DNA of 64,000 nucleotides from Minisyncoccota bacterium (lineage in GTDB: Bacteria > Patescibacteriota > Minisyncoccia > Phycocordibacterales > JAQTLZ01). A model generated the notes under the pieces. The model saw only the letters and a program-made list of their open reading frames with translations. It made no database searches and was not told the DNA's origin. Each line of letters begins with the position of its first letter. Positions within the stretch are counted from its first letter, which is position 1. The stretch spans positions 121,841-185,840 of the forward strand of contig JAQTLZ010000002.1 of NCBI GenBank assembly GCA_028714635.1. The letters run 5' to 3'. A program made the translations under genes and the position numbers. Below are positions 1 to 59,343 of the stretch, one piece after another.

Positions 1-381
1 AACACTACGGTTATTGTTACCGATCCATCCGCGCCTATCATTACTGTGACTGCGCCAAATGGCGGAGAGAATTGGAAAATAAACGCTACGCGGGCGATAA
101 CATGGAGAGACAGTAACTATAATTCCAGCGCAAAAATTGATTTGTACTTGGGCAAACAATTGCCCGTCGTGTGCGTAAAAGCTCCCTGCGGACCTTTCTT
201 TGAATCATCTACGTACGTACTTGATAAAAATATTCCAAATACCGGTGTCTATAATTGGATCGTAGGAACAGACATCGTTAATAACCCTATTCCGCCAGAC
301 AGTTATGGTCTTCGAATTTGTGTAAGCGGGACTGACAATTGCGACTTGAGCGATGAGCCGTTTACACTTATTAATAATTAA
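1..381 (+). CDS. 3' fragment of a secreted/cell-surface protein (beta-sandwich surface repeat); start lies upstream of the window
   Basis: Frame 1 is open from nt 1 to the stop at 379-381; track ORF 46..381 is its tail. The NGGENW..ITW..IDLYL pattern is typical of surface Ig-like repeats. Confidence 0.6.
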
Positions 382-392
382 TTATTCATAGT

Positions 393-1151
393 ATGCCCCT
401 TTTTTTTCTCGTTTTTGTCGTCGTCGTATTATTGTTTCTCTCGCTTAAGGTTTTGAAGGAGTACGAGCGGGGAGTCATTTTCTTTCTTGGAAAATCTACT
501 GGTATGCGAGGTCCCGGACTTATTATTCTCGTCCCCATTTTGGAAAAGATGACGCGAGTGGAGCTTCGTACTATCACGATGAATATTCCGTCCCAGAAAA
601 TTATTACCAAAGATAATGTGTCTATTGATATCGCCGCTGTCGCTTATTATCACGTCGTCGATTCAATAAAATCTGTCATTGCTATTGAAAATGTTGCAAG
701 CGCAGTCAATCAAATCAGTCAGACTACGGTGCGAAATGTCGTCGGGCGATTCAAGCTCGATGAGCTTCTTTCGCAGACTTCAGAGATCAATATAGACATA
801 AAAGATACGATAGACAGCCATACCGAGCCGTGGGGAGTGCAGGTCACCGCCGTAGAAATCAAAGACATTACGCTTCCTGATAACATGCAAAGAGCGATGG
901 CAAAAGAAGCTGAAGCAGAACGAGAAAGACGGGCAAAAATTGTTGCGGCAGAAGGAGAATTTCAGGCGGCGGTAAAGCTTGGCGAAGCGGCAGATATTAT
1001 TTCGGCTCACCCCGTAGCATTGCAACTGAGGACACTTCAAACAATGGCAGAGATTGCTACCGAGAGAAATTCTACAATTATTTTCCCAGCGCAATTCATG
1101 ACGACTGTTGCGGATGCGATGGCGACAATTCGACAGGATAACAAGAAATAG
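393..1151 (+). CDS. SPFH/band-7 (stomatin/prohibitin-like) membrane protein
   Basis: 252 aa. N-terminal TM helix, then [27 protein letters not shown] and an [11 protein letters not shown] coiled region, which are SPFH domain hallmarks. Confidence 0.9.
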
Positions 1152-1220
1152 ATCGATTCTCCTAGATTAAAGCTCGTAACTCTGGTATAACAAAGGGGCT
1201 CATTTATTGAGTTTTTAAAT

Positions 1221-1292
1221 GGTGGCTATGGTGTAGCGGCAGCACAAGAGCTTGTGGAGCTTTTAGTCTGGGTTCAACTCCCAGTAGCCACC
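1221..1292 (+). tRNA. tRNA-His (anticodon GTG) with genomically encoded G-1
   Basis: Manual cloverleaf: G-1 at 1221, acceptor GTGGCTA/TAGCCAC, D arm GTGT-AGCGGCA-GCAC, anticodon loop TTGTGGA, T arm CTGGG-TTCAACT-CCCAG, C73. CCA is not encoded (CAA follows). Confidence 0.9.
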
Positions 1293-1325
1293 CAAGGAAA
1301 CAAAACAGCCGAAAGGCTGTTTTGT

Positions 1326-1467
1326 CTTGGGTGGCTAAGTGAGCAACCAAGGTTGCTCACGTCTGGGAGTTGAAGCCCGATTGAGCACACCGCCCTTTTA
1401 AAACAAAAGGGCGGGGTCCAATCGGGGTACTGCTTCTGTAAGAAGCGACATCCCCAGTAGCCACCCA
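1326..1467 (+). ncRNA. tRNA-His-derived structured element containing copy A of the GUACWG/UGUAA motif
   Basis: Outer helix GGGTGGCT(1329-1336)/AGCCACCC(1459-1466). Hairpin 1339-1360. CTGGG(1363-1367)/CCCAG(1453-1457). P-a helix CCCGATTG(1376-1383)/CAATCGGG(1419-1426) enclosing hairpin 1391-1415. GTACTG 1427-1432. Hairpin CTTC-TGTAA-GAAG 1433-1445. Confidence 0.6.
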
Positions 1468-1545
1468 AACAAAACATGTAACCAGTCTCTCGGTATTTCG
1501 TCATTTTGAGTAAAGGTCGCATTACTCAATTCTTAGAAAAAAACT

Positions 1546-1803
1546 ATGTTGGGATATTGCGGAGGATATGGCGGGTATAGTTTTGATCTCTTCGGGCTGT
1601 TTTTGTGGATAATGGTCTGGGTGCTCATCATCGGTCTCGTCGTGAGACTTGTCCGCGAGCATCACTGGTTCCATTGGTTCGGCGCGCATCATTTGACTCT
1701 GAAAAATTCAGCCGCTCTTGAAATTCTAGATTCTCGATACGCGAAAGGCGAGATCAGTAAAAACGAATACGAAGAAAAAAAGGCCGACATTATGAAACAA
1801 TGA
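1546..1803 (+). CDS. SHOCT-domain small membrane protein
   Basis: 85 aa. Gly/Tyr-rich N-terminus, one TM helix, and C-terminal ALEILDSRYAKGEISKNEYEEKKADI typical of the SHOCT domain. Confidence 0.7.
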   Translation: MLGYCGGYGGYSFDLFGLFLWIMVWVLIIGLVVRLVREHHWFHWFGAHHLTLKNSAALEILDSRYAKGEISKNEYEEKKADIMKQ

Positions 1804-1952
1804 ATTTGACGACTATGATCCAGAAAAGAAAAAGCGGATATTACGTGCTTTCGGAAAAAACAAAAAAGAATCTCGGAGGTCCGTATAAAACTCATGGAGA
1901 AGCGGTGAAAAGATTGCGGCAGGTCGAGTTTTTCAAGCACAGAGGGAAGTGA
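1800..1952 (+). CDS. small basic hypothetical protein (50 aa), below the ORF-track cutoff
   Basis: Hand translation gives MNLTTMIQKRKSGYYVLSEKTKKNLGGPYKTHGEAVKRLRQVEFFKHRGK. Its ATG overlaps the SHOCT stop (ATGA at 1800-1803). A hairpin plus T-run follows at about 1998-2040. Confidence 0.45.
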   Translation: MNLTTMIQKRKSGYYVLSEKTKKNLGGPYKTHGEAVKRLRQVEFFKHRGK

Positions 1953-2042
1953 TCTTGGATTCTGCCTGTGAACAACTCATTTCGCTTGAAAAAAGTCTTG
2001 ATTTTCAAGCACTTTTTGAAGTGCCTTTTGCACTTTTCTTTT

Positions 2043-2071
2043 TTGACATACAGATGCTATAGGCATACAAT
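2043..2071 (+). promoter_or_regulatory. sigma70-like promoter of high-GC cassette 1
   Basis: TTGACA (2043-2048), 17-nt spacer, TACAAT (2066-2071). Downstream 5' UTR has an AGGAGGG Shine-Dalgarno site at 2129-2135. Confidence 0.6.
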
Positions 2072-2142
2072 TTTTTTGGGCGTCCCTAGAACAACTGTGT
2101 TCCGGGACATAGCGGGGGTTAGTTTTGCAGGAGGGTTCGGAG

Positions 2143-2610
2143 ATGGACAATGGAACAGAGGCAAAGTACGTGGACGTGGCTGATCGGCTTTGGGAGGAGA
2201 GGAATGCAAAAGACACCATTGTCAGGGACGATGGGTCTGTGATGGCGGTCTTCCGCGTCCTCGAAATCAATGCCCGTCGCAAGGCTCGCCGGGTGATCCT
2301 CGGGATCAAGTTTGTCGGCGGGAAGATTTTCCAGCAGCTCTTCGTGGTCAAGAAGGAGAAGGGTGCCACGGATATCTGTCACGGCGACCGCCTGATCGCG
2401 GTTCATTCCAGTTTCATGGACATCGCCGGGCTCGCCAAGGCTTCGTTGTCAGAGCGTCTCGAGAAGGCACTGGCAATTCTCGAAAACGTCGCTCACAGCA
2501 TCAGGCGCGATCCGGGCCTTCTGGAGAAGATTCGCAATCCCAAGGATTGCCGTTCGGTCAACACAGTGGGCGGGCAAAGGTGGGACAGGCGGCGGATAGC
2601 ATACGCCTAA
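2143..2610 (+). CDS. hypothetical protein (orphan, high-GC cassette 1)
   Basis: ATG at 2143 lies 7 nt after AGGAGGG. 155 aa with protein-like composition. The overlapping alternative-frame ORFs are Arg/Gly/Ser-rich off-frame products of GC-rich DNA. Confidence 0.6.
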   Translation: MDNGTEAKYVDVADRLWEERNAKDTIVRDDGSVMAVFRVLEINARRKARRVILGIKFVGGKIFQQLFVVKKEKGATDICHGDRLIAVHSSFMDIAGLAKASLSERLEKALAILENVAHSIRRDPGLLEKIRNPKDCRSVNTVGGQRWDRRRIAYA

Positions 2611-17042: not shown

Positions 17043-17588
17043 ATGGCAAAACAAAAAATAGACGAAGGGCGAAATTGGTATGTCATCCACACCTATGCTG
17101 GATATGAAAATGCCGTTGCTCGAAACCTAAAACAGCGCATCGAATCTCTTGGAATGGAGAACAAGATTTTCAACGTGCTCGTTCCAACAGAAAAGAAGAT
17201 CAAAATTAAAGGAGGGAAGCGAGTAGAGGAGGAAGAGAAAATTTATCCCGGATACATTCTTGTGGATATGATCGTGACTGATGATTCTTGGTACGTAGTT
17301 CGAAACACTCCTCGTGTGACCGGCTTCGTCGGCTCTGGAGTATACCCAGTTCCAATCGATCAGAAAGAAGTAGACGCGCTCTTCAAGAGAATGCAATCCG
17401 ATACCGTAAAGCACACGATTGATCTTGCTCCAGAAGACCATGTGATGATCGTTGACGGCCCATTCAAGGATTTGGACGGCAAGGTAAACGAGGTTGATCA
17501 GGAAAGAGGCAAGGTGAAAGTGCTTGTTTCGATGTTCGGACGAGAGACGCCAGTAGAACTCGACTTCCTTCAGGTCAAAAAGGCTTAA
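17043..17588 (+). CDS. nusG: transcription termination/antitermination factor NusG
   Basis: 181 aa. WYVIHTYAGYENAV N-terminal domain and a KOW motif (VDGPFKDLDGKV). Confidence 0.95.
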   Translation: MAKQKIDEGRNWYVIHTYAGYENAVARNLKQRIESLGMENKIFNVLVPTEKKIKIKGGKRVEEEEKIYPGYILVDMIVTDDSWYVVRNTPRVTGFVGSGVYPVPIDQKEVDALFKRMQSDTVKHTIDLAPEDHVMIVDGPFKDLDGKVNEVDQERGKVKVLVSMFGRETPVELDFLQVKKA

Positions 17589-17616
17589 AAAAGTTTAGCT
17601 GAAGCAAACTTTTTTA

Positions 17617-17658
17617 ACGTCGGGCTTTTTTCCTGAAATAATGAAAAAAGCCCGACGT
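17617..17658. terminator. 15-bp inverted repeat between nusG and rplK (terminator/attenuator)
   Basis: ACGTCGGGCTTTTTT/AAAAAAGCCCGACGT with a 12-nt loop. Preceded by a second hairpin, AAAAAGTTT..AAACTTTTT. Confidence 0.55.
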
Positions 17659-17709
17659 AAACTAGTTCAGTTGCAAATAAGAAGAAATTAAGATAACCTA
17701 CACACACTT

Positions 17710-18132
17710 ATGGCAAAGAAAGTAACAAAAAAATTGAAGCTTGTGATCGCCGGGGGAAAGGCAAACCCAGCTCCACCAATTGGCCCTGCGCTTGGTCAGG
17801 CTGGTATTAACATTGGGGAGTTCGTCACCAAGTTCAACGCTGCAACCAAGGATATGATCGGAGACCTCGTTCCCGTACAGGTTTTTGTATACGAAGACCG
17901 AACATTCTCTTTTGTCACCAAGACTCCTCCCGCATCGAGCCTTATCATGAAGGCGATCAAGATCGACAAAGGTTCAGGCAAGCCAAACACCTCAAAAGTA
18001 GGAAAGATCAGCCGAGCGCAGATCAAAGCAATTGCAGAAAAGAAACTTCCTGATTTGAATGCGAATGATTTGGCTGGGGCTATGAAGATTATTGAGGGAA
18101 GCGCCCGCTCAATGGGGGTTGATGTGATCTAA
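17710..18132 (+). CDS. rplK: 50S ribosomal protein L11
   Basis: 140 aa. [19 protein letters not shown] signature. Confidence 0.95.
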
Positions 18133-18224
18133 ATCACATCAACCGACCTTTTGAGACAGAATTCCGCGTATGCGCGGAAATTATGTCCAAAAGGTGTACT
18201 GCTCCTGTAAGGAGTTGATGTGAT
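18118..18224 (+). ncRNA. copy B of the GUACWG/UGUAA motif with flanking triple repeat
   Basis: GTTGATGTGAT (18118-18128, end of rplK), its complement ATCACATCAAC (18133-18143), P-a ACCTTTTG/CAAAAGGT (18146-18153/18188-18195), inner hairpin TTCCGCG..CGCGGAA, GTACTG 18196-18201, CTCC-TGTAA-GGAG 18202-18214, then GTTGATGTGAT again (18214-18224). Confidence 0.6.
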
Positions 18225-18240
18225 TGGATAAATAATGATA

Positions 18241-18278
18241 AAAAGCCCCGCGCCGTAAGGAGCGGGGCTTTTCTTTTT
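18241..18278 (+). terminator. rho-independent terminator
   Basis: GCCCCGC(18245-18251)/GCGGGGC(18262-18268), then TTTTCTTTTT. Confidence 0.8.
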
Positions 18279-18297
18279 CCTGTGATATAGTATTTTC

Positions 18298-20943
18298 ATG
18301 GAAAATTTTACTCCTAAAAATCCAGCCGAACTCGAACTTCAGCTCCAGAAGGCCAGCCAAACTCTTGGAGAATCTATTGCCGTTCCTTCTAAAATAGCAG
18401 ATACGCTTGGTATTTCTTTAGAAGACCTTAAGGTCAAGTTTCCTCGACGATACGAGGCGTATCTCAAGCTTATCCGAGCTGAGAAAAACAACCAGGAAAT
18501 TCCGCAAGAAGATCTCGAACATTTTCAAAAATGGATTCGAGCACTTAACAATCTTGATCGTTATATAGAATCACAAAAGACCGAAATCGGCAGAACCCTT
18601 CGTGAAAAACAAGTAGGCGTTTTCGAGGATATGAGGGATTTCGTGGAAGAGGGTGGCCAGGCTGGTTACGTTAAATTACCTACGGGATTTGGTAAGACTG
18701 TCATTTTCTCTCAATTCGTAGAGGCTCTTGGCTTACGTACACTTATCGCAGTCCCCAAGAAGAATCTTGTCCACCAAACAGCAAAAAGCCTTGAACGGTT
18801 CACTGATCTTGATGTTGGAAAACTGTATCAATATGCCAAAGAGCACGATAAGCCAGTGACGGTTAGTACATACCAATCGATGATAAAGGAAACTGAAGAT
18901 GGAGGATTAAAGCCGGAAGAGTACGACTGCCTTATCTTGGACGAAGCGCATAAAGCACTTGGGCCAAAAAGTGTTCACACCATTGAAAAGTTTGATCATG
19001 CGCTCCGGCTCGGATTCACAGCCACTCCGCAATATTCTGAAACAAAAGGAGTGCAAGATCTTTTGGAAACAGAAATCCACAGCATCTCGATCAAAGAGGC
19101 TGTGGACGATGGGGCGCTTTCCTCCTTTTCGGTCATTTTAGCAAGAACTAAAGTAGACCTTTCGAAAGTAAAGGTGAAATCTGACGGAGAATATGATGAA
19201 AAAGATTTGGAAAAAGCCATAAACGTAGCTTCCCGCAATATGGCTGCAATCAATCTTTATAAAAAGATGTTTAATGGAAAACACGCAATGGCCTATTGCG
19301 CTGGTGTCGAACATGCCCGGGAAGTTGCACGACTTTTCAACGAAGCTGGCATCAAAAGCGTAGCGGTCGCAGGTGAAGACCATCTTTCGGAAGAAGAAAT
19401 GTTGGATATCTTTGAAAAATTCCGTTCAGGAGAGATCAAAGTGATTACCAATGCTGATATTTTTGTCGAAGGATTCGATGAGCCGAAAGCTTCTGTGTGT
19501 CTCAATTTGCGCCCAACCGCATCACCGGTCGTGGCAGAACAGCGGGGCGGTAGAGTTTTGAGACTAGATCCTTCCGATGAGAATAAGCACGCGTTTATCG
19601 TTGACTTTGTTGATGAGGATGAGAAGGCAGATTCCATAAATATTTCTTTTGCAGAAGTTGCGGAAGCTTCTGAATTTCCTCCGAGGACAAACTCGCGTCT
19701 CGGAGAGGTCACTCCAGATCAAACTGAATCAGTTTCTCGCGAGAAAAGCGATATTGTCATCGAAGGGCTGGAGCTTGTAACTGATCCGAATGAAGTTATG
19801 AGGCTCGTACAGAACAAGGCGTCCAGAAAAAAAGGAACAAATGCCGAGCTAGAAGCTCAGGAAATACCGAAATGCCCGGAAGGATGGCTTGCCGTTTTGT
19901 ATTTTTCTGATGACCAACATAAAAAATATGGTTTAAAAAGATATATGGAACGTTCCATAATTTCTAGGGTAGAGCGCAAAAACGCGCATCTCTTCGGTCA
20001 ATTTAGAAGCGAGCGAAAAACGCAAGATACAGAGTGGTTTTTGTCGCCTGAAGCGCAGGCTCTTATTGAAAAGGATATGGCTTATCATGCGGGGTGGGAC
20101 TTGAAAGAGAGAGGATATACTTCTGGGCTTGAGCTCAGTAAAAGATTCGCTCTTTTTAGAGAAAAATTTCGACATTTGGAAGATGAAATATCAGAGGCGG
20201 ATCCGCAAGCGATAATTACCCGTACCTATCAGAGATTTTATTCTGCGGATGCAATAAAAGAAATTGAGGCTGTTTATGGCAAGTTTGCTCCAGAGGGATG
20301 GATTTATCGGGCGGATATCTTCCGTAAATATTTTGGCGGTAGTAAAACTGGGGGTGACGCAGGGAACAAGTTGGTGGAAAAGTTGAAGAAAGAGATGCCT
20401 GATGAAGTCGATGTGTTTGTGAATAGGCCAACTGGCCATAGTTTAGAGTTCTATTCGCCTCGTTTTGTTGAAGAGTTTGGGAAGAGAGATATAACCAGTG
20501 TCTACAAAAGCAAAGAAGAAAAAGCAAAGCGCATCGAGGATAAGAAGCGGGAAGGTCCTCCTTCGGGGTGGTTTCCTGTGAAAGATATTGTTATTTTGTG
20601 TCGAATTAAGGAACCTTTCCTCAGGCGCAAATTGAATGATATGGAGTTTTTGCACGATAATGAAATTAAAAATCTCGCTTTCGGCTTTAAGACGAACATA
20701 CTCTGTGCCACGGCAAAAATAATTCGCCAAATTATCCTGGATGATTGTAAACGTATCAAAACGGGAGAGCCGCCAGCTGGCTGGCAATCAACAGATGAGA
20801 TTTTACAGGCAAGAAGCTTAGAACTGCAAGATTTCTACTATAAACTTCTTTCTTTGCTGCCGACTCCAGAGACTATGAAGAGATATACAAAGAAAGGTGT
20901 CACTGACTACTATTTCAGTCCTGATTTTTTGGCAAAGTTATAA
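18298..20943 (+). CDS. SF2 DEAD/DEAH-box (ResIII-type) helicase with a repeat-containing C-terminal extension of about 430 aa
   Basis: Motif I PTGFGKT, motif II LDEAHKA, motif III FTATPQ, plus a helicase-C region. TGATATAGT -10 box ends 6 nt before the ATG. Confidence 0.8.
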   Translation: MENFTPKNPAELELQLQKASQTLGESIAVPSKIADTLGISLEDLKVKFPRRYEAYLKLIRAEKNNQEIPQEDLEHFQKWIRALNNLDRYIESQKTEIGRTLREKQVGVFEDMRDFVEEGGQAGYVKLPTGFGKTVIFSQFVEALGLRTLIAVPKKNLVHQTAKSLERFTDLDVGKLYQYAKEHDKPVTVSTYQSMIKETEDGGLKPEEYDCLILDEAHKALGPKSVHTIEKFDHALRLGFTATPQYSETKGVQDLLETEIHSISIKEAVDDGALSSFSVILARTKVDLSKVKVKSDGEYDEKDLEKAINVASRNMAAINLYKKMFNGKHAMAYCAGVEHAREVARLFNEAGIKSVAVAGEDHLSEEEMLDIFEKFRSGEIKVITNADIFVEGFDEPKASVCLNLRPTASPVVAEQRGGRVLRLDPSDENKHAFIVDFVDEDEKADSINISFAEVAEASEFPPRTNSRLGEVTPDQTESVSREKSDIVIEGLELVTDPNEVMRLVQNKASRKKGTNAELEAQEIPKCPEGWLAVLYFSDDQHKKYGLKRYMERSIISRVERKNAHLFGQFRSERKTQDTEWFLSPEAQALIEKDMAYHAGWDLKERGYTSGLELSKRFALFREKFRHLEDEISEADPQAIITRTYQRFYSADAIKEIEAVYGKFAPEGWIYRADIFRKYFGGSKTGGDAGNKLVEKLKKEMPDEVDVFVNRPTGHSLEFYSPRFVEEFGKRDITSVYKSKEEKAKRIEDKKREGPPSGWFPVKDIVILCRIKEPFLRRKLNDMEFLHDNEIKNLAFGFKTNILCATAKIIRQIILDDCKRIKTGEPPAGWQSTDEILQARSLELQDFYYKLLSLLPTPETMKRYTKKGVTDYYFSPDFLAKL

Positions 20944-43890: not shown

Positions 43891-44961
43891 ATGAACAATG
43901 AGCCCCAAAATACCCTCATTCATATCTCCACGGGCACGATCATTAAAAGTCTCCTGTTTATTATCCTTGTCCTCGCCCTCTATTTTTTAAGAGATATCGT
44001 TCTCATTATTTTGACGGCGATCGTCATTGCATCAGCTATTGAACCAGCGACTCGATATCTTGTAGAGAAAAAAATTCCTCGGACGTTCTCTGTCGTTATT
44101 CTCTATGTACTTGTTATTTTTGCTCTTGCAGCTGTCTTTTATTTCCTTCTACCGACCCTTCTTTCAGAGACGACAAGTTTCTTGGAGAGAATAAACTCCA
44201 TCGATGTCCTCGGATCTTTGAAAGAACAAGGAATACTCTCTCCTGACAATCCGCTCCAAGGCCTTTCTTCGCAGTTTAATCTGCAAGGAGTTATCGGCTC
44301 TGTTCGGGGAGTGGTGAACCAGTTTTCGAGCGGGTTCTTTAATACTGCAAGCATCCTTTTCGGTGGAGCGCTTTCTTTCATTCTCATATTCGTGCTCTCT
44401 TTCTATTTTGCGGTGCAGGAAGACGGAGTGGAAGATTTTCTTCAAGTAGCATCGCCTATTCGGTATAAAAATTATGTAACGGATTTGTGGAAGCGTTCAC
44501 AGAAGAAGATTGGCCTCTGGCTTCAAGGCCAGCTTCTTCTCGGGCTTCTTGTCGGAGTTTTGGATTTTCTTGGCCTTACTATTTTCGGAATTAAGCATGC
44601 GCTTCTTCTCGCGGTCCTCGCAGCACTTTTGGAGATCATTCCGCTTTTCGGCCCAATTCTCTCTGCAATTCCAGGTGTTGCTATCGCGTTTGTGAGCGGA
44701 GGTACCCCGCTTGCGCTTTTAGTGCTTGCTTTGTACGTCATTGTTCAGCAGTTTGAGAATCATCTCATCTATCCTTTGGTGGTAAACAAAATAGTGGGTA
44801 TTTCGCCGATTCTTGTTATCATTTCGCTCCTTGTCGGTTGGAGACTTGCGGGATTCCTTGGGGTGCTTCTTTCTGTCCCGGTCGCGGCGGTATTCATGGA
44901 ATACTATTCTGATGTGCGAAAGAATAAATTCGGGCACCTCACCAAGGTGAGGGAAGGGTAG
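43891..44961 (+). CDS. AI-2E/PerM (UPF0118) family transporter
   Basis: 356 aa, 7-8 TM helices, LLEIIPLFGPILSAIP signature. TGATATGAT -10 box ends 6 nt before the ATG. Confidence 0.8.
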   Translation: MNNEPQNTLIHISTGTIIKSLLFIILVLALYFLRDIVLIILTAIVIASAIEPATRYLVEKKIPRTFSVVILYVLVIFALAAVFYFLLPTLLSETTSFLERINSIDVLGSLKEQGILSPDNPLQGLSSQFNLQGVIGSVRGVVNQFSSGFFNTASILFGGALSFILIFVLSFYFAVQEDGVEDFLQVASPIRYKNYVTDLWKRSQKKIGLWLQGQLLLGLLVGVLDFLGLTIFGIKHALLLAVLAALLEIIPLFGPILSAIPGVAIAFVSGGTPLALLVLALYVIVQQFENHLIYPLVVNKIVGISPILVIISLLVGWRLAGFLGVLLSVPVAAVFMEYYSDVRKNKFGHLTKVREG

Positions 44962-44977
44962 GGACCCGTCCCGCAAG

Positions 44978-45030
44978 ACCTTGAGTGTTTTGTAATCAAA
45001 AAGCGAAAGGTGTACAGCTCCTGTAAGGAG
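44978..45030 (+). ncRNA. copy C of the GUACWG/UGUAA motif, upstream of metG
   Basis: P-a ACCTT(44978-44982)/AAGGT(45007-45011) enclosing hairpin TTTTG-TAAT-CAAAA. GTACAG 45012-45017. CTCC-TGTAA-GGAG 45018-45030. Confidence 0.55.
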
Positions 45031-45051
45031 GAATATCAAAGACATAATTTC

Positions 45052-46482
45052 ATGGCAGAAAAGAAATCCTTTTATATCACGACGACTCTTCCGTACGTGA
45101 ATTCTGATCCACATATCGGTTTTGCCGCGGAAATTGTACACGCTGATATTCTGGCTCGCTACGCGCGTCTCATGGGCCAAAGCGTTTTCTTTAATACCGG
45201 TACGGATGAACATGGCATAAAAGTGTATCGAAAGGCCGAGGAAGAGGGAATTTCTACTCAAAAATATGTTGATGAAAAAGCAACGCATTTTGAAAGCCTA
45301 AAACTTTCTCTCAACTTGAGTTTCAATAGTTTTATTCGCACTACGGACGCGAAGCATAAAAAAGCGGCGGGAAGCTTTTGGGAGGCCTGTGCTGCTTCCG
45401 GCGACATCTACAAAAAAGCCTACAAAATTAAATATTGCGTCGGCTGTGAACTTGAAAAGACAGAATCGGAACTTATAAACGGCAGATGCGCGATACACCC
45501 GAATTTAGAGCTCGAGATTATTGAAGAAGAAAATTATTTTTTTAGATTTTCAAAATATCAGAAAGTGCTTCTGGATTTGTATGAAAAAAATCCAGAATTT
45601 GTTGTTCCGGCAACGCGTCTACACGAGATAAAAGCATTTGTTGAAAGGGGACTTGAAGATTTTTCAATTTCCCGTTTAAAAAGCAAAATGCCGTGGGGAG
45701 TGGATGTTCCTGGAGATGAAGAGCATGTTATGTACGTTTGGTTTGATGCACTTGTGAATTATATTGATGTTATCGGCTGGCCAGAAAATGAAACCGAATT
45801 TGCAAAATGGTGGCCAGGAATTCAAATCGCTGGGAAAGACAACCTTCGTCAGCAATCGGCAATGTGGCAGGCGATGCTTCTCTCCGCGGGGCTTCAAAAT
45901 TCAAAACAAATAATCCTTCGCGGGCACATAATTAGCGGCGGGCAAAAAATGTCCAAGTCCCTAGGCAATGTCATAAGCCCTACTGATCTGGTAAAAGAAT
46001 ACGGCACGGATGCTGTGCGCTATTTCCTTGCTAGGGAAGTGAATCCGTTTGAAGATAGTGATGTAACGCTCGAGCGTATTAAAGAAGCCTATAACGCGAA
46101 TCTTGCGAATGGCTTGGGGAATCTCGTCGCTCGAATAATGAAAATGGCACAAACAAATTTAGAAAAGGCGCCGAAAATTCCAGAGGATCCAATCCCAGAA
46201 ATATTTAAAAAAGCCATTGAAAAATACGATATAAAAACCGCGGCGGACTACGTATGGAAAGAAATCGCGGTGCTTGATTCGATCATTCAAGAAGAAGAGC
46301 CGTTCAAGCTTATAAAAACGAACAAAGCAGAGGCGATAACCATTATTGAAGATCTCTGCGTCCGTCTCTACACAATCGGCAGAATGTTAAATTCAATATT
46401 GCCCGAAACGTCAGAAAAAATTAAATCCGCGGTGAAGGCAAACAAAATGCCCGAAGTTTCTCTTTTTCCGAGGAAGGAATAA
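45052..46482 (+). CDS. metG: methionine--tRNA ligase (short form)
   Basis: ATG at 45052 (MAEKKSFYITTTLPYVNSDPHIGF = HIGH region), and KMSKSLGN. The track start at 45010 reads through the RNA motif. Confidence 0.95.
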   Translation: MAEKKSFYITTTLPYVNSDPHIGFAAEIVHADILARYARLMGQSVFFNTGTDEHGIKVYRKAEEEGISTQKYVDEKATHFESLKLSLNLSFNSFIRTTDAKHKKAAGSFWEACAASGDIYKKAYKIKYCVGCELEKTESELINGRCAIHPNLELEIIEEENYFFRFSKYQKVLLDLYEKNPEFVVPATRLHEIKAFVERGLEDFSISRLKSKMPWGVDVPGDEEHVMYVWFDALVNYIDVIGWPENETEFAKWWPGIQIAGKDNLRQQSAMWQAMLLSAGLQNSKQIILRGHIISGGQKMSKSLGNVISPTDLVKEYGTDAVRYFLAREVNPFEDSDVTLERIKEAYNANLANGLGNLVARIMKMAQTNLEKAPKIPEDPIPEIFKKAIEKYDIKTAADYVWKEIAVLDSIIQEEEPFKLIKTNKAEAITIIEDLCVRLYTIGRMLNSILPETSEKIKSAVKANKMPEVSLFPRKE

Positions 46483-57399: not shown

Positions 57400-59343
57400 A
57401 TGAATTATAAAACAAAGAGAGTAGTTGCAGGAGTTCTCGGTTTGGCAATGGCAGTCTCAATGGTTGCTGCTGCTGGAGGAGCTCTTACAGCTTTGGCTTC
57501 GTTCGACGTAAACCTTACTGTCGGCTCAACAGGAGCAGATGTAACGGCACTTCAAAACTGGCTTATTGAGAACGGATTTCTCAGTATCCCAGCTGCGACT
57601 GGCTACTTCGGTCCTTTGACCCAATCAGCAGTTGCTGCTTATCAGACAAGTGTTGGTATTACACCAGCAGCTGGTTATGTAGGTCCAATCACTCGAGCTA
57701 AGCTCAACGCGGGCGGTTCAGTTTCTGGAAACTTCCCAGCAGGTTGTACAAGCGCTTCAGGTTACAGCAGTGTAACAGGATTGCCTTGCGCACCGATTGG
57801 TTTCCCAGCAGGATGTACTTCAGCTTCAGGATTTAGTTCAACAACTGGACAGCCATGTTCGGGTGGTGGATCTTTCCCAGCAGGATGTACTTCAGCTTCA
57901 GGATTTAGCACAACAACCGGAATGTCATGTTCTGGCGGTTCATCAGGAGGTGGTTCACTTTCTGGTGGCGCAGGTGAAATAACAGTAACTGCTAAGACAG
58001 CTGGTACAGAAACCACTGTTGGCGAAGGAAAAGAGGAAAAGGTCCTCGGTATGGAGATAGAGGCTGATGATAACTCTGATGCTGAAATCACTTCTATGCG
58101 ACTTATCGCTACTGTTGACACCGATGGAGCAACAAGATTCAACCGATATGTTGACGAAGTAAAGGTATATATGGGAAGCAAAGAGGTAGGTTCATTGGAT
58201 TCATCTGATTTCTCACGAGATGCAGCTGAATTCACTGGAACCATTTCTCTCCATGGTGCCGTCGTACAGAAAGGCGAGAAAGTTCGATTCTATGTCGCTT
58301 TTGTCGCTAACAACATTATTGATTCTGATGATCTAGACAATACGATCAATCTCGTCGTAAGTCGAATCCGATTTACTGACGCTACAGGAGCAATCCTCAC
58401 AAATGAGGACATTGATACTGATGATGTGACCGTATCTTTCGAAGACGCAACAGAAAGTGATGGAGCAAAGGTGCAATCAGACTCTTCTACACCTGATGCA
58501 CAGATTTTGAAAGTTGAAGATAATAGTAGTTCAGAAGAATACCATATCTTCTCATTCAAGATTAAGTCAGACTCAGGCGCATCTGATATGGAGGTCACAT
58601 CGCTTCCTATCAACCTCTCAATCTACAACGCATCTACTACAGCTATCAACACGGAAGACTTGATTGATGATATGTATGTGATGATTGGTGGAAAGAAGTA
58701 TGATGATTACACATTCGACAACACAAGTATTGCTACAGCTAGTACAGAGACCGCTATAGCTACCTTCACCATAGACGAAGGAGATCTAACAGTTGACGGT
58801 GGTACTACTGAGCAAGCTAAGGTGTACGTCAAATTCGGTAGACAAGAAGACAAATACGCTGCTGCTGATACAACAGTTACAGCTTCTGTCGTCGGTTCTA
58901 CTATTGACGCAGAAAACTCTAACGGTGATACCATTGACTTGACTGGTACTGTCACTGGAAAGACAATGACAGCTGCTATTTCTGCTGCTGAAGTCACAGA
59001 CTTCACTTGGGCAGTAGGAACTGGCGGAACATACATAGACTTCTTCTTCACAGTAACAGCTGGCGATGAAGACTTCGATGTTCTTACAGCAAGCATTGCT
59101 TCTTCTACATCTGGTAATGCAACAACATCTTCTGGAACTCTCACAAAGAGCTCTGGCGATGATGTAACTAGCATTTCAGGAGGATTCACTGTCGCTTCTG
59201 GAGATACAACAACGTTCAAAGTTAGATACTTGGTAACAGGTTCTAACGGAACAATCTCAACAGTAACGATTACTTCTGTGGCTGGACAAGAGGTACCTGA
59301 CAACAAACAGGAATCTCCTACAGCAACAAGAAACGTTTACTAA
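57400..59343 (+). CDS. secreted peptidoglycan-binding-domain protein with Cys-repeat and Thr/Ser/Asp-rich beta region
   Basis: 647 aa. Signal/TM, PG_binding_1-like segment (GADVTALQNWL..GYFGPLTQSAVAAYQ), and three FPAGCTSASG(F/Y)S..TG..C repeats. Confidence 0.75.
   Translation: MNYKTKRVVAGVLGLAMAVSMVAAAGGALTALASFDVNLTVGSTGADVTALQNWLIENGFLSIPAATGYFGPLTQSAVAAYQTSVGITPAAGYVGPITRAKLNAGGSVSGNFPAGCTSASGYSSVTGLPCAPIGFPAGCTSASGFSSTTGQPCSGGGSFPAGCTSASGFSTTTGMSCSGGSSGGGSLSGGAGEITVTAKTAGTETTVGEGKEEKVLGMEIEADDNSDAEITSMRLIATVDTDGATRFNRYVDEVKVYMGSKEVGSLDSSDFSRDAAEFTGTISLHGAVVQKGEKVRFYVAFVANNIIDSDDLDNTINLVVSRIRFTDATGAILTNEDIDTDDVTVSFEDATESDGAKVQSDSSTPDAQILKVEDNSSSEEYHIFSFKIKSDSGASDMEVTSLPINLSIYNASTTAINTEDLIDDMYVMIGGKKYDDYTFDNTSIATASTETAIATFTIDEGDLTVDGGTTEQAKVYVKFGRQEDKYAAADTTVTASVVGSTIDAENSNGDTIDLTGTVTGKTMTAAISAAEVTDFTWAVGTGGTYIDFFFTVTAGDEDFDVLTASIASSTSGNATTSSGTLTKSSGDDVTSISGGFTVASGDTTTFKVRYLVTGSNGTISTVTITSVAGQEVPDNKQESPTATRNVY
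57733..57945 (+). repeat. three tandem 69-72-nt coding repeats
   Basis: Units start at 57733, 57802 and 57874. Units 2 and 3 share an identical 35-nt stretch, TTCCCAGCAGGATGTACTTCAGCTTCAGGATTTAG. Confidence 0.85.

Follow-up and report, generated by a model that had tools for sequence, protein, structure and literature searches.

What is the structured element in the leader of metG, the methionyl-tRNA synthetase (MetRS) gene of a Minisyncoccota bacterium, doing at that position, and is it there to control the gene? The window analyzed is a stretch of 64,000 nucleotides (nt) in which an earlier, sequence-only reading had recognized copies of a hairpin motif (A, B and C below). That reading had left undecided whether copy C, which precedes metG and whose terminal hairpin pairs CUCC with the Shine-Dalgarno (SD)-like word GGAG, regulates the gene or is a passenger. 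The evidence favours the passenger, since the unit is absent at the same junction in three relatives and its family is found in many unrelated contexts and in both orientations. Copy C is probably a lineage-specific insertion of a mobile or duplicative structured repeat, one that would have no role in the control of metG. The features concerned are collected in Table 1.

Copy C at the permease-metG junction

The contigs that carry the four closest MetRS homologues (L121-L124; MetRS identities of 91, 87, 80 and 76%) are syntenic with the window, sharing the M16 peptidase, AI-2E permease, metG, TatD, S6 and SSB genes. L121 has the 90-nt spacer and the unit as in the window, and the unit is matched by R1, a covariance model built from an alignment of 87 units of the family (A1). 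R1 has no match in the other three, where the distance from the permease stop to the metG start is 3-10 nt rather than 90 nt and the junctions read ..AAGGCTTAA TCTC ATG in L122, ..AAGGCGTAA TTCTTTCACG GTG in L123 and ..TAA GAT ATG in L124. Because these three junctions are empty, copy C can be delimited as an insertion of about 95 nt (44948-45042) that breaks the final sense codon of the permease gene, and on this comparison it is a recent one, present only in the window and in its closest relative, L121.

The junction in the window reads ..ACCAAGG, TGAGG...GGAGGAATATCAAAGA, CATAATTTC ATG, and in an alignment with L121-L124 and the empty-site sequences (A2) the insert is flanked by ..ACCAAGG on the left and CATAATTTCATG on the right; the empty-site counterpart of 45043-45051 is CTTAATCTC ATG in L122 and CGTAATTCTTTC..GTG in L123. 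The insertion would have fallen between ..AAGG and C(N)TAAT, and without 44948-45042 the junction would read ..AAGGCATAATTTCATG. It would have parted a permease stop and a metG start that formerly lay 3-10 nt from each other, uncoupling two abutting genes and adding four codons to the permease. The permease ends in ..K-V-R-E-G* instead of ..K-A* after the insertion, and has 356 amino acids (aa) in the window and L121 as against 353, 353 and 348 aa in L122-L124. No direct or inverted repeat of at least 8 nt was found around copy C, in line with the earlier remark that it lacks a flanking triple repeat. A target duplication was considered and dropped: none is convincing, and the resemblance between ACCAAGG and ATCAAAGA, of about 7 nt at most, is too weak.

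Two descriptions of copy C from the sequence-only reading need revision. It had been called a trimmed version of the motif, with a P1 helix and a small inner hairpin; both of these parts are borne out, but the unit is not trimmed, being a full unit of "type 1" whose 5' hairpin, H0, had been missed (the type 1 5' module GUGA-[hairpin]-GCAAG is present at 44947-44977). It had also been said to occupy the spacer between the two genes, but the complete structured unit (44948-45031) starts upstream, inside the end of the permease gene, and 45032-45051 is an unstructured linker. H0 overlaps the last permease codons, its loop and stem containing the permease stop TAG (44959-44961). The folding energy of 44962-45051 is unremarkable (z = -0.89 against shuffles), and copy C is the best of the three matches to R1 in the window (68 bits, E = 7.6e-15, at 44973-45032).

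ATG 45052, on the comparisons made, is the true metG start, because solved MetRS structures align (from their own residues 2-4) from residues 17-18 of the longer open reading frame (ORF), i.e. 3-4 residues past M15, because the closest homologues, at 91, 87, 80, 76 and 72% identity, have 476, 476, 473, 475 and 479 aa against the 476 aa counted from 45052, and because in three relatives just 3-10 nt separate the end of the upstream gene from the start of metG. The sequence-only reading was thus right to distrust the extended start at 45010, and the alignment of the MetRS N-terminus that it had named as the check supports 45052. Translation from GTG 45010 places VYSSCKEEYQRHNF before M15, and an N-terminal extension of MetRS is not common to the homologues. 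The probability that the region is coding, with metG starting at 45010 and the “hairpin” encoding this peptide, is negligible: the frame is open from 45010 and in frame with metG, and in L117 and L005 a short upstream ORF crosses the module in the same frame (..DKVYS(S/F)CK..), but the homologues and the solved structures start at the M15 position, the segment is absent in relatives, the lengths of P1 and H0 do not change in steps of three, and covariation in the helices is of the RNA pairing type. In annotation, neither the 45010 start nor other ORF extensions of this sort through such units should be accepted, and the 3' ends of the permease gene and of rplK in the window genome should be regarded as made by insertion.

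Table 1. Positions in the window of copies C, B and A, their parts and the adjoining genes; all features are on the + strand.
Feature	Position	Remark
AI-2E family permease gene	43891-44961	Pfam
Stretch free of mismatches to L121, 155 nt	44941-45095	covers unit, linker and first 44 nt of metG
Copy C, 5' consensus GGUGAG	44946-44951	unit proper from U44948, after target G
Copy C, inserted segment, ~95 nt	44948-45042	structured unit and 11-12-nt tail; from empty sites
Copy C, H0: GGGAAGGG-UAGGGA-CCCGUCCC	44951-44972	
Copy C, junction GCAAG between H0 and P1	44973-44977	columns >90% conserved in A1
Copy C, P1 arm	44978-45011	base helix, tandem G.A pairs and inner hairpin; from fold
Copy C, P1 base helix ACCUU / AAGGU	44978-44982 / 45007-45011	read in sequence
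Copy C, tandem G.A pairs in P1	GA 44983-84 with GA 45005-06	
Copy C, inner hairpin UUUUG-UAAU-CAAAA	44988-45001	
Copy C, junction GUACAG	45012-45017	invariant in A1
Copy C, P2 hairpin CUCC-UGUAA-GGAG	45018-45030, plus G45031	the “anti-SD/SD” pair of the sequence-only reading
A/U-rich linker, copy C to metG	45032-45051	without structure
Pre-insertion junction CATAATTTC	45043-45051	holds old permease stop TAA 45045-45047; from comparison with L122, L123
metG (MetRS, 476 aa)	45052-46482	start ATG 45052
Target copy X GTTGATGTGAT	18118-18128	at present rplK end; can pair with X'
Copy B, 96-nt insertion inside rplK end	18129-18224	empty sites in L210, L211; R1 52.7 bits; fold z = -8.7
Copy B, C-TAA, new rplK stop	18130-32	
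Copy B, X' ATCACATCAAC	18133-43	inverted copy of preceding 11 nt; then CG
Copy B, P1	18146-95	
Copy B, GUACUG	18196-201	
Copy B, P2	18202-14	
Copy B, duplicated target TTGATGTGAT	18215-24	
Old rplK end TGGATAA	18225-31	
tRNA-His	1222-1293	3' part 1280-1295 is the sequence copied in copy A
Copy A (type 2), 3' of tRNA-His	1327-1468	fold z = -8.7; R1 47.5 bits
Copy A, antisense acceptor strand TTGGGTGGCTA	1327-37	
Copy A, H0	1339-60	
Copy A, antisense T-stem/T-loop CTGGGAGTTGAA	1363-74	
Copy A, P1	1376-1426	
Copy A, GUACUG	1427-32	
Copy A, P2	1433-45	stem CUUC/GAAG
Copy A, direct copy of tRNA 3' end CCCAGTAGCCACCCAA	1453-68	

The question of metG control

If the unit were a cis-acting regulator of metG, P2 would sequester the SD sequence AAGGAGG by means of CUCC and would open on a signal such as a ligand, temperature, a tRNA or a protein. 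The hairpin is found at 45018-45031 as the sequence-only reading had described it, with 20 nt between G45031 and the ATG. The location of the unit in the metG leader and the pairing of an SD-like word in P2 speak for such a role, as does the substitution-free 155-nt block that spans unit, linker and metG start: window and L121 differ at 13.7% of 3931 aligned sites, none of them within 44941-45095, and the next longest identical run is 65 nt. Against it stand the three relatives in which the junction is empty, the distance of the SD-like word from the ATG, the free covariation of the P2 sequence in the family, the occurrence of the same module after tRNAs, after rplK and antisense to its neighbours, a genome in which SDs are hardly used, and the lack of a match to a T-box or any other Rfam leader in 44800-45200 at E values up to 10. 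Regulation of metG by the unit is on this evidence very improbable.

The block could alternatively stem from a recent exchange, or from strong constraint on both the initiation region and the unit. That the unit pairs with the metG start was also tried as its cause and rejected, as the 171-nt fold (z = -1.6) is not better than shuffles and the alternative pairing is weak.

The AAGGAG(G) of copy C looks like one variant of a covarying stem and not like a conserved SD, because the P2 stem sequence varies freely: UUCC/GGAA, ACCC/GGGU, UCCC/GGGA, GCGCC/GGCG, GAGUC/GACUC, UUCG/CGAA and GGUCG/CGACC all occur in the family, with the UGUAA loop and its closing pair kept. CUCC/GGAG appears in none of seven distinct units that adjoin rplK and were found independently of the search pattern, and the stem of copy A is CUUC/GAAG, as had been reported. 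The earlier judgement that conservation here is structural and not tied to SD function holds for the whole family.

No SD-like word lies 4-20 nt before ATG 45052, and such words occur 4-20 nt upstream of the first start in a handful of the 56 + strand ORFs of at least 100 aa in the window, so that initiation in this genome seems to be largely SD-independent. A promoter scan of 44700-45200 found neither a promoter-like site nor a terminator in the metG leader. AAGGAGG would be both too far from the ATG (20 nt) for an SD role and base-paired, and translation of metG would most likely begin from the 20-nt linker, which is A/U-rich and unstructured, in the way that seems to hold for most genes of this SD-poor genome.

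Copy C resembles the leader regulators of aminoacyl-tRNA synthetase genes (T-boxes and SD-sequestering operators) in its site before such a gene and in a hairpin that pairs an SD-like word, but it has no specifier or T-box elements, its SD-like word is unconserved and 20 nt off, and the leader is missing at orthologous loci. A T-box has a Stem I with a specifier loop, the T-box sequence and a terminator/antiterminator or sequestrator; the unit has about 85 nt and no Rfam match to it. An SD-sequestering operator or RNA thermometer has its SD 5-10 nt from the start, against a gap of 20 nt here, and a conserved SD/anti-SD pair, against a P2 that varies and a leader that is absent in L122-L124.

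The repeat family and its fold

The copies in the window were found by a 22-mer and a degenerate 19-mer (at 1427, 18196 and 45012), each pattern giving 2-3 sites as against none in shuffles, and R1 with filters off finds exactly three units, C with 68, B with 52.7 and A with 47.5 bits, the next match having 10.7 bits. In a collection of species-representative genomes, the pattern GTACNGCTYCTGTAAGRAG places the family on at least 120 contigs. Among the matches listed nearly all are Patescibacteria; about 29 of 80 titles are Saccharibacteria, and the remainder are Paceibacterota, Kaiser-, Nomura-, Zambryski-, Taylor-, Yonath- and Lloydbacteria and other metagenome-assembled genomes (MAGs). Units were also seen on contigs L012 and L062 of MAGs labelled Acidimicrobiales and Chromatiaceae, which are probably mis-binned Patescibacteria contigs. 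The fetched loci contain 134 R1 units, about 32 of which the search pattern had missed. Among 2.9 million viral contigs there was no exact match to the 19-mer, and a looser pattern gave five loci, none of them a real unit.

The unit can be written as 5'-UGAG-H0-GCAAG-P1-GUACNG-P2(UGUAA), with a length of about 85-110 nt. Most units are of type 1; these all begin with (G)GUGAG and carry the 5' module GUGA-[H0]-GCAAG, the boundary before UGAG being placed by junctions with duplicated target sequence. Copy C has every part of this description: an ACC../..GGU P1, GUACAG followed by the UGUAA-loop hairpin, and the type 1 5' module. The junction between P1 and P2 follows the consensus G-[U/G/A][A/U]AC-N-G, with the variants GGAC, AUAC and AAAC among R1 matches.

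Covariation is evident in each of the helices. All eight P1 base pairs show compensatory double changes in A1, and 90.8% of the cells of the P1 base are paired, compared with 76.7% in shuffles (none of 500 as high) and 37-54% in slid controls. The H0 stem differs in sequence from copy to copy and yet every type 1 unit folds there, with pairs 2-7 formed in 89-100% of units, against 42-56% in shuffles, by 3-5 pair types each. Units at one orthologous GH1-gene locus (L005/L015) have diverged as much as their flanks, but through compensatory changes. On these alignments the family is a structured repeat with covariation in all three helices, distributed throughout Patescibacteria and absent from Rfam. 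A search of the whole window against Rfam at gathering thresholds, and at E values up to 10 around all three copies, gave only tRNA-His and chance matches, and no description of the motif in Patescibacteria was found in Rfam 15 or in the literature searched.

The fold seems to be kept by selection in a single-stranded form, most likely RNA, because of the tandem G.A pairs in P1, which favour the + strand, the tolerance of G.U pairs and the compensatory evolution; in the strand test in P1, G.U and A.C cases number 12 and 17, the A.C cases coming from one subfamily. Two structural interpretations were dropped in the course of the analysis: that of CUGUAAG as an anticodon loop, because its closing pair covaries, and that of a circular permutation in which H0 is the capped closing helix of type 2, because type 2 units also carry H0.

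Insertion, rival explanations and known elements

Copy B provides a second comparison of filled and empty sites. Its 96 nt lie between GATGTGAT and TGGATAA, while the L11 proteins of two sister genomes (L210 and L211; 98 and 96% identical) have 141 aa and their genes end in GTNGATGTNAT TGG ATAA (VDVIG*), followed by a terminator; no R1 unit occurs after rplK in either. Look-ups by exact sequence of the L11 and MetRS proteins encoded in the window itself gave no match. Copy B carries a 10-11-nt target duplication together with an inverted copy of the target, X', which can pair with either flanking target copy and with the downstream one closes a three-way junction (z = -8.7). The site at the rplK end is also occupied in the distant genomes L014, L032, L046, L143, L160 and L164, the three strands following the local rplK sequence. 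In the surrounding region of the window (17043-20943), the order is nusG, rplK, copy B, a terminator at 18240-18272 and then a helicase-like gene, with no rplA adjoining rplK; in the copy-B-less sister L210, an ORF for a 74-aa GIY-YIG domain (1215-1439) lies between nusG and rplK, where the window has only a 120-nt spacer.

Copy A stands downstream of tRNA-His, from which it is separated by a terminator-like hairpin. Its strands rebuild the acceptor and T stems of the tRNA, with H0 where the D and anticodon arms would be. It is present in L212, and in L213 only a decayed relic (..GGTATGCTTTTAAGAGATGAAGCCATCCCCAGTTACAG) follows tRNA-His. L213 (1052-1127 and 2130-2215) has a 55-bit unit between rplS and an SPFH gene as well as this relic. 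Window positions 1-2252 are identical over 2252 aligned nt to contig JAQTSW010000039.1 of GCA_028711105.1, a Candidatus Pacebacteria MAG. Taken together, the loci suggest a mobile or duplicative family whose units are gained, are lost and decay between close relatives.

Across the family, units lie after tRNAs, after rplK, before other genes and between convergent genes; about 55 of 122 have a tRNA no more than 400 nt away, which they mostly follow, on its own strand, at a distance of 100-190 nt. In 70 cases the upstream neighbour shares the strand of the unit and in 38 it lies opposite, and 23 of 125 units are antisense to both neighbours (crude ORF calls). On either side of the units lie direct repeats, 10-49 nt long, whose sequence is a copy from the gene next to them. 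A type 1 unit begins with UGAG after a target G, ends with P2, and usually sits within a partial copy of the neighbouring gene: a 5' tRNA fragment up to the D or anticodon loop, a 3' fragment from the T or anticodon loop onwards, or the opening 12-14 codons of a protein gene. The gene adjoins its partial copy in intact form, and 2-3 target nt are missing at the type 1 junction.

Several arrangements of related interest accompany these sites. Many tRNAs that lack the module still have their 3' ends copied downstream, in antisense and in sense, with another insert, GAG(G/U)CGGGGUCGCG..GUGACC, in between. This second cargo family (..GAG(G/U)CGGGGUCGCG-[A/U-rich hairpin]-(C/U)GUGACC) has the same frame of target, inverted target, cargo and target copy; it occurs at L049 6736-6870, at L004 4875-5000 and just after rplK in L129, L145, L148, L151, L158 and L163, and is nested inside units of the first family in L103 and L152/L155. 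In L036, L038, L044, L075, L082 and L021 the tRNA 3' end, together with its trailer and a bidirectional terminator, makes up with the antisense copy a long near-perfect palindrome downstream of the tRNA, the hairpins having predicted energies of -90 to -110 kcal/mol. Tandem arrays of 2-3 units, each with its own inverted and direct copy of the preceding sequence, are found at L027 2263-2602, in L040 (minus strand), at L032 4816-5078 and after rplK in L164. Over about 230 nt of L092 (minus strand), a tRNA-like 5' part (GCGAGTG..) and 3' part (..CACTCGCA) are split by a complete tRNA-Gly and a type 1 unit, so that this is either a split or interrupted tRNA or a pair of leftover fragments. An autonomous element was sought in the two inverted units of L056 and rejected, since they flank no ORF of note. 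Elsewhere in the window, two tandem 72-nt copies, 86% identical, lie at 57801-57944 within a long ORF (57400-59343).

Units may enter their sites by recombination or template-switch copying, with no dedicated enzyme nearby. Snap-back or template-switch copying is suggested by the direct-inverted-direct arrangement of target copies and by the long palindromes centred on terminators. Entry might alternatively occur by recombination after DNA uptake, Saccharibacteria being naturally competent (PMC10187176), or by an RNA-level or enzyme-guided process.

Several points weigh against the reading of copy C as a mobile passenger. The first 122 members of the family were collected with a pattern that fixes most of P2. 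The 155-nt substitution-free block would agree with a function that ties the unit to the start of metG. Loop and junction nucleotides that are invariant across classes of the phylum are unusual for selfish repeats and point to catalysis or to a partner that is conserved. Crude ORF calls underlie the orientation analysis, and orientations and junctions were read partly by hand. No transposase, integrase or reverse transcriptase was seen beside any copy, mobility being deduced from presence and absence, in three filled/empty comparisons only, and from target duplications.

In a rival explanation, the family would be a domesticated RNA module that serves its host wherever it is transcribed, as a REP-like 3'-end stabilizer, a terminator or insulator, or a site for a Patescibacteria protein, its spread by duplication being secondary; type 2 would then be part of a tRNA-shaped RNA processed by tRNA enzymes, and copy C would insulate or stabilize the permease and metG messages. 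The phylum-wide conservation of junction and loop nucleotides between covarying stems, the compensatory evolution at the orthologous locus, the absence of substitutions in copy C as against 13.7% in its flanks, the frequent site just after genes and tRNAs, and the target-derived strands of type 2, which form the stems (acceptor and T) of the adjacent tRNA anew and leave H0 exactly at the place of the D and anticodon arms, are all consistent with it. This explanation is nevertheless rather unlikely, as close relatives manage without the units that the window has recently gained, copy A decays in L213, about a third of the copies are opposite to the upstream gene, and the unit comes with no conserved promoter or terminator.

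A catalytic or RNA-mediated mobile element, i.e. a small ribozyme of a new kind that cleaves or inserts itself, or an intron-like RNA, that enters exposed tRNA loops and mRNA ends and is fixed in DNA secondarily, would explain the precise 5' end (UGAG after a target G), the 3' end at the end of P2 and the lack of a type 1 target duplication, as well as the insertion points in the D-, anticodon- and T-loop regions of tRNA copies. Its junction nucleotides are invariant, as in small ribozymes, and Patescibacteria are rich in self-splicing group I introns (PMC13011429). Such an element is highly doubtful, however, as reverse transcriptases and group II introns are reported to be absent from Patescibacteria (PMC13011429), the 2-3 target nt lost at type 1 points mean that excision would not restore the gene, the interrupted copies are pseudo-fragments beside intact genes, and no Rfam ribozyme or intron is matched.

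The nearest known kinds of element are REP/REPIN sequences, MITE-type repeats (MITE, miniature inverted-repeat transposable element) and att duplications, each of which shares some traits with the family and lacks defining ones. Like the REP/BIME/REPIN sequences of proteobacteria, the units are short, non-coding, multi-copy and hairpin-forming and lie mostly just after genes, and the ability of REPs to affect mRNA stability or termination while also being mobile can be counted as a shared trait. REPs, however, are GC-rich palindromes of 20-40 nt with a GTAG/CGTC tag and conservation at the level of the genus, moved by RAYT transposases, while the Patescibacteria unit has about 100 nt, three different covarying helices, conservation across classes of the phylum and no such tag, and no transposase has been identified for it, no search for a RAYT gene having been made. 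Bacterial MITEs (Correia/CREE, ERIC, RUP, BOX) are likewise small, non-coding, non-autonomous, multi-copy insertions that are present or absent between close genomes, with nested and tandem copies, and, like copies B and C, they may lengthen ORFs or bring in stop codons. Unlike MITEs, type 1 units have neither element-specific terminal inverted repeats nor a target duplication of fixed length; the “inverted repeats” of types 2 and 3 are copied from their own target, as with the inverted segments of copies A and B, which equal the local target, and the length of the duplication runs from zero, or no more than about 7 nt, in copy C through 10-11 nt in B and at least 16 nt in A to 49 nt elsewhere.

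The att-type direct repeat of tRNA-targeting integrative elements (attL/attR of tyrosine integrases), in which an intact tRNA is followed by a direct copy of its 3' part from the T loop or anticodon loop to beyond the 3' end, is found in the family. Only 80-170 nt lie between the repeats, in place of an integrase and kilobases of cargo, and the units differ further in their extra inverted copy of the tRNA end and in using the same architecture at the rplK end. Miniature elements derived from IS200/IS605 have conserved subterminal hairpins, depend on one TnpA, and insert 3' of a fixed target of 4-5 nt without duplication. Type 1 units are similar in their precise 5' end and lack of duplication, but their hairpin stems differ among copies A, B and C and their targets share only a G. 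Dispersed families of small ribozymes and introns (hammerhead, twister, group I) also conserve a fold and junction nucleotides while their stems covary, and have many copies in unrelated contexts, architectural variants and, for group I introns of Patescibacteria, an association with tRNA genes; the units, by contrast, match none of them in Rfam by sequence or structure, cannot be cleanly removed from their sites, and are too small for the P3-P9 core of a group I intron, Rfam's Intron_gpI giving no match. The TIGR arrays of Tas guide RNAs, reported in the candidate phyla radiation, consist of tandem units with two alternating repeats of 8-12 nt and 9-nt spacers (PMC12045711), and identity with them was ruled out by this different anatomy.

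Viewed as a regulator of metG, copy C gives an ordinary and largely negative result; the family is an unusual variant among the small bacterial repeats. It is tentatively conceivable, with low confidence, that the units are an undescribed mobile structured nucleic acid of Patescibacteria, a three-helix RNA (or single-stranded DNA) of about 100 nt that inserts after a G in exposed tRNA loops and at gene ends without an element-encoded protein, types 2 and 3 building a closing helix, or even a tRNA-shaped mimic, from sense and antisense copies of the target. If true, this would mean that insertion proceeds by a new chemistry, ribozyme-like or RNA-guided, or that a dedicated enzyme of the host reads GUGA, GCAAG, UAC-N-G and UGUAA. 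A structured repeat common to Saccharibacteria and Paceibacterota, gained and lost between close relatives with very small genomes and tied to tRNA fragments, can be used to study how genomes that are reduced and naturally competent gain non-coding insertions and put up with them, and it may point to an RNA-binding or nucleic-acid-processing activity common to the phylum.

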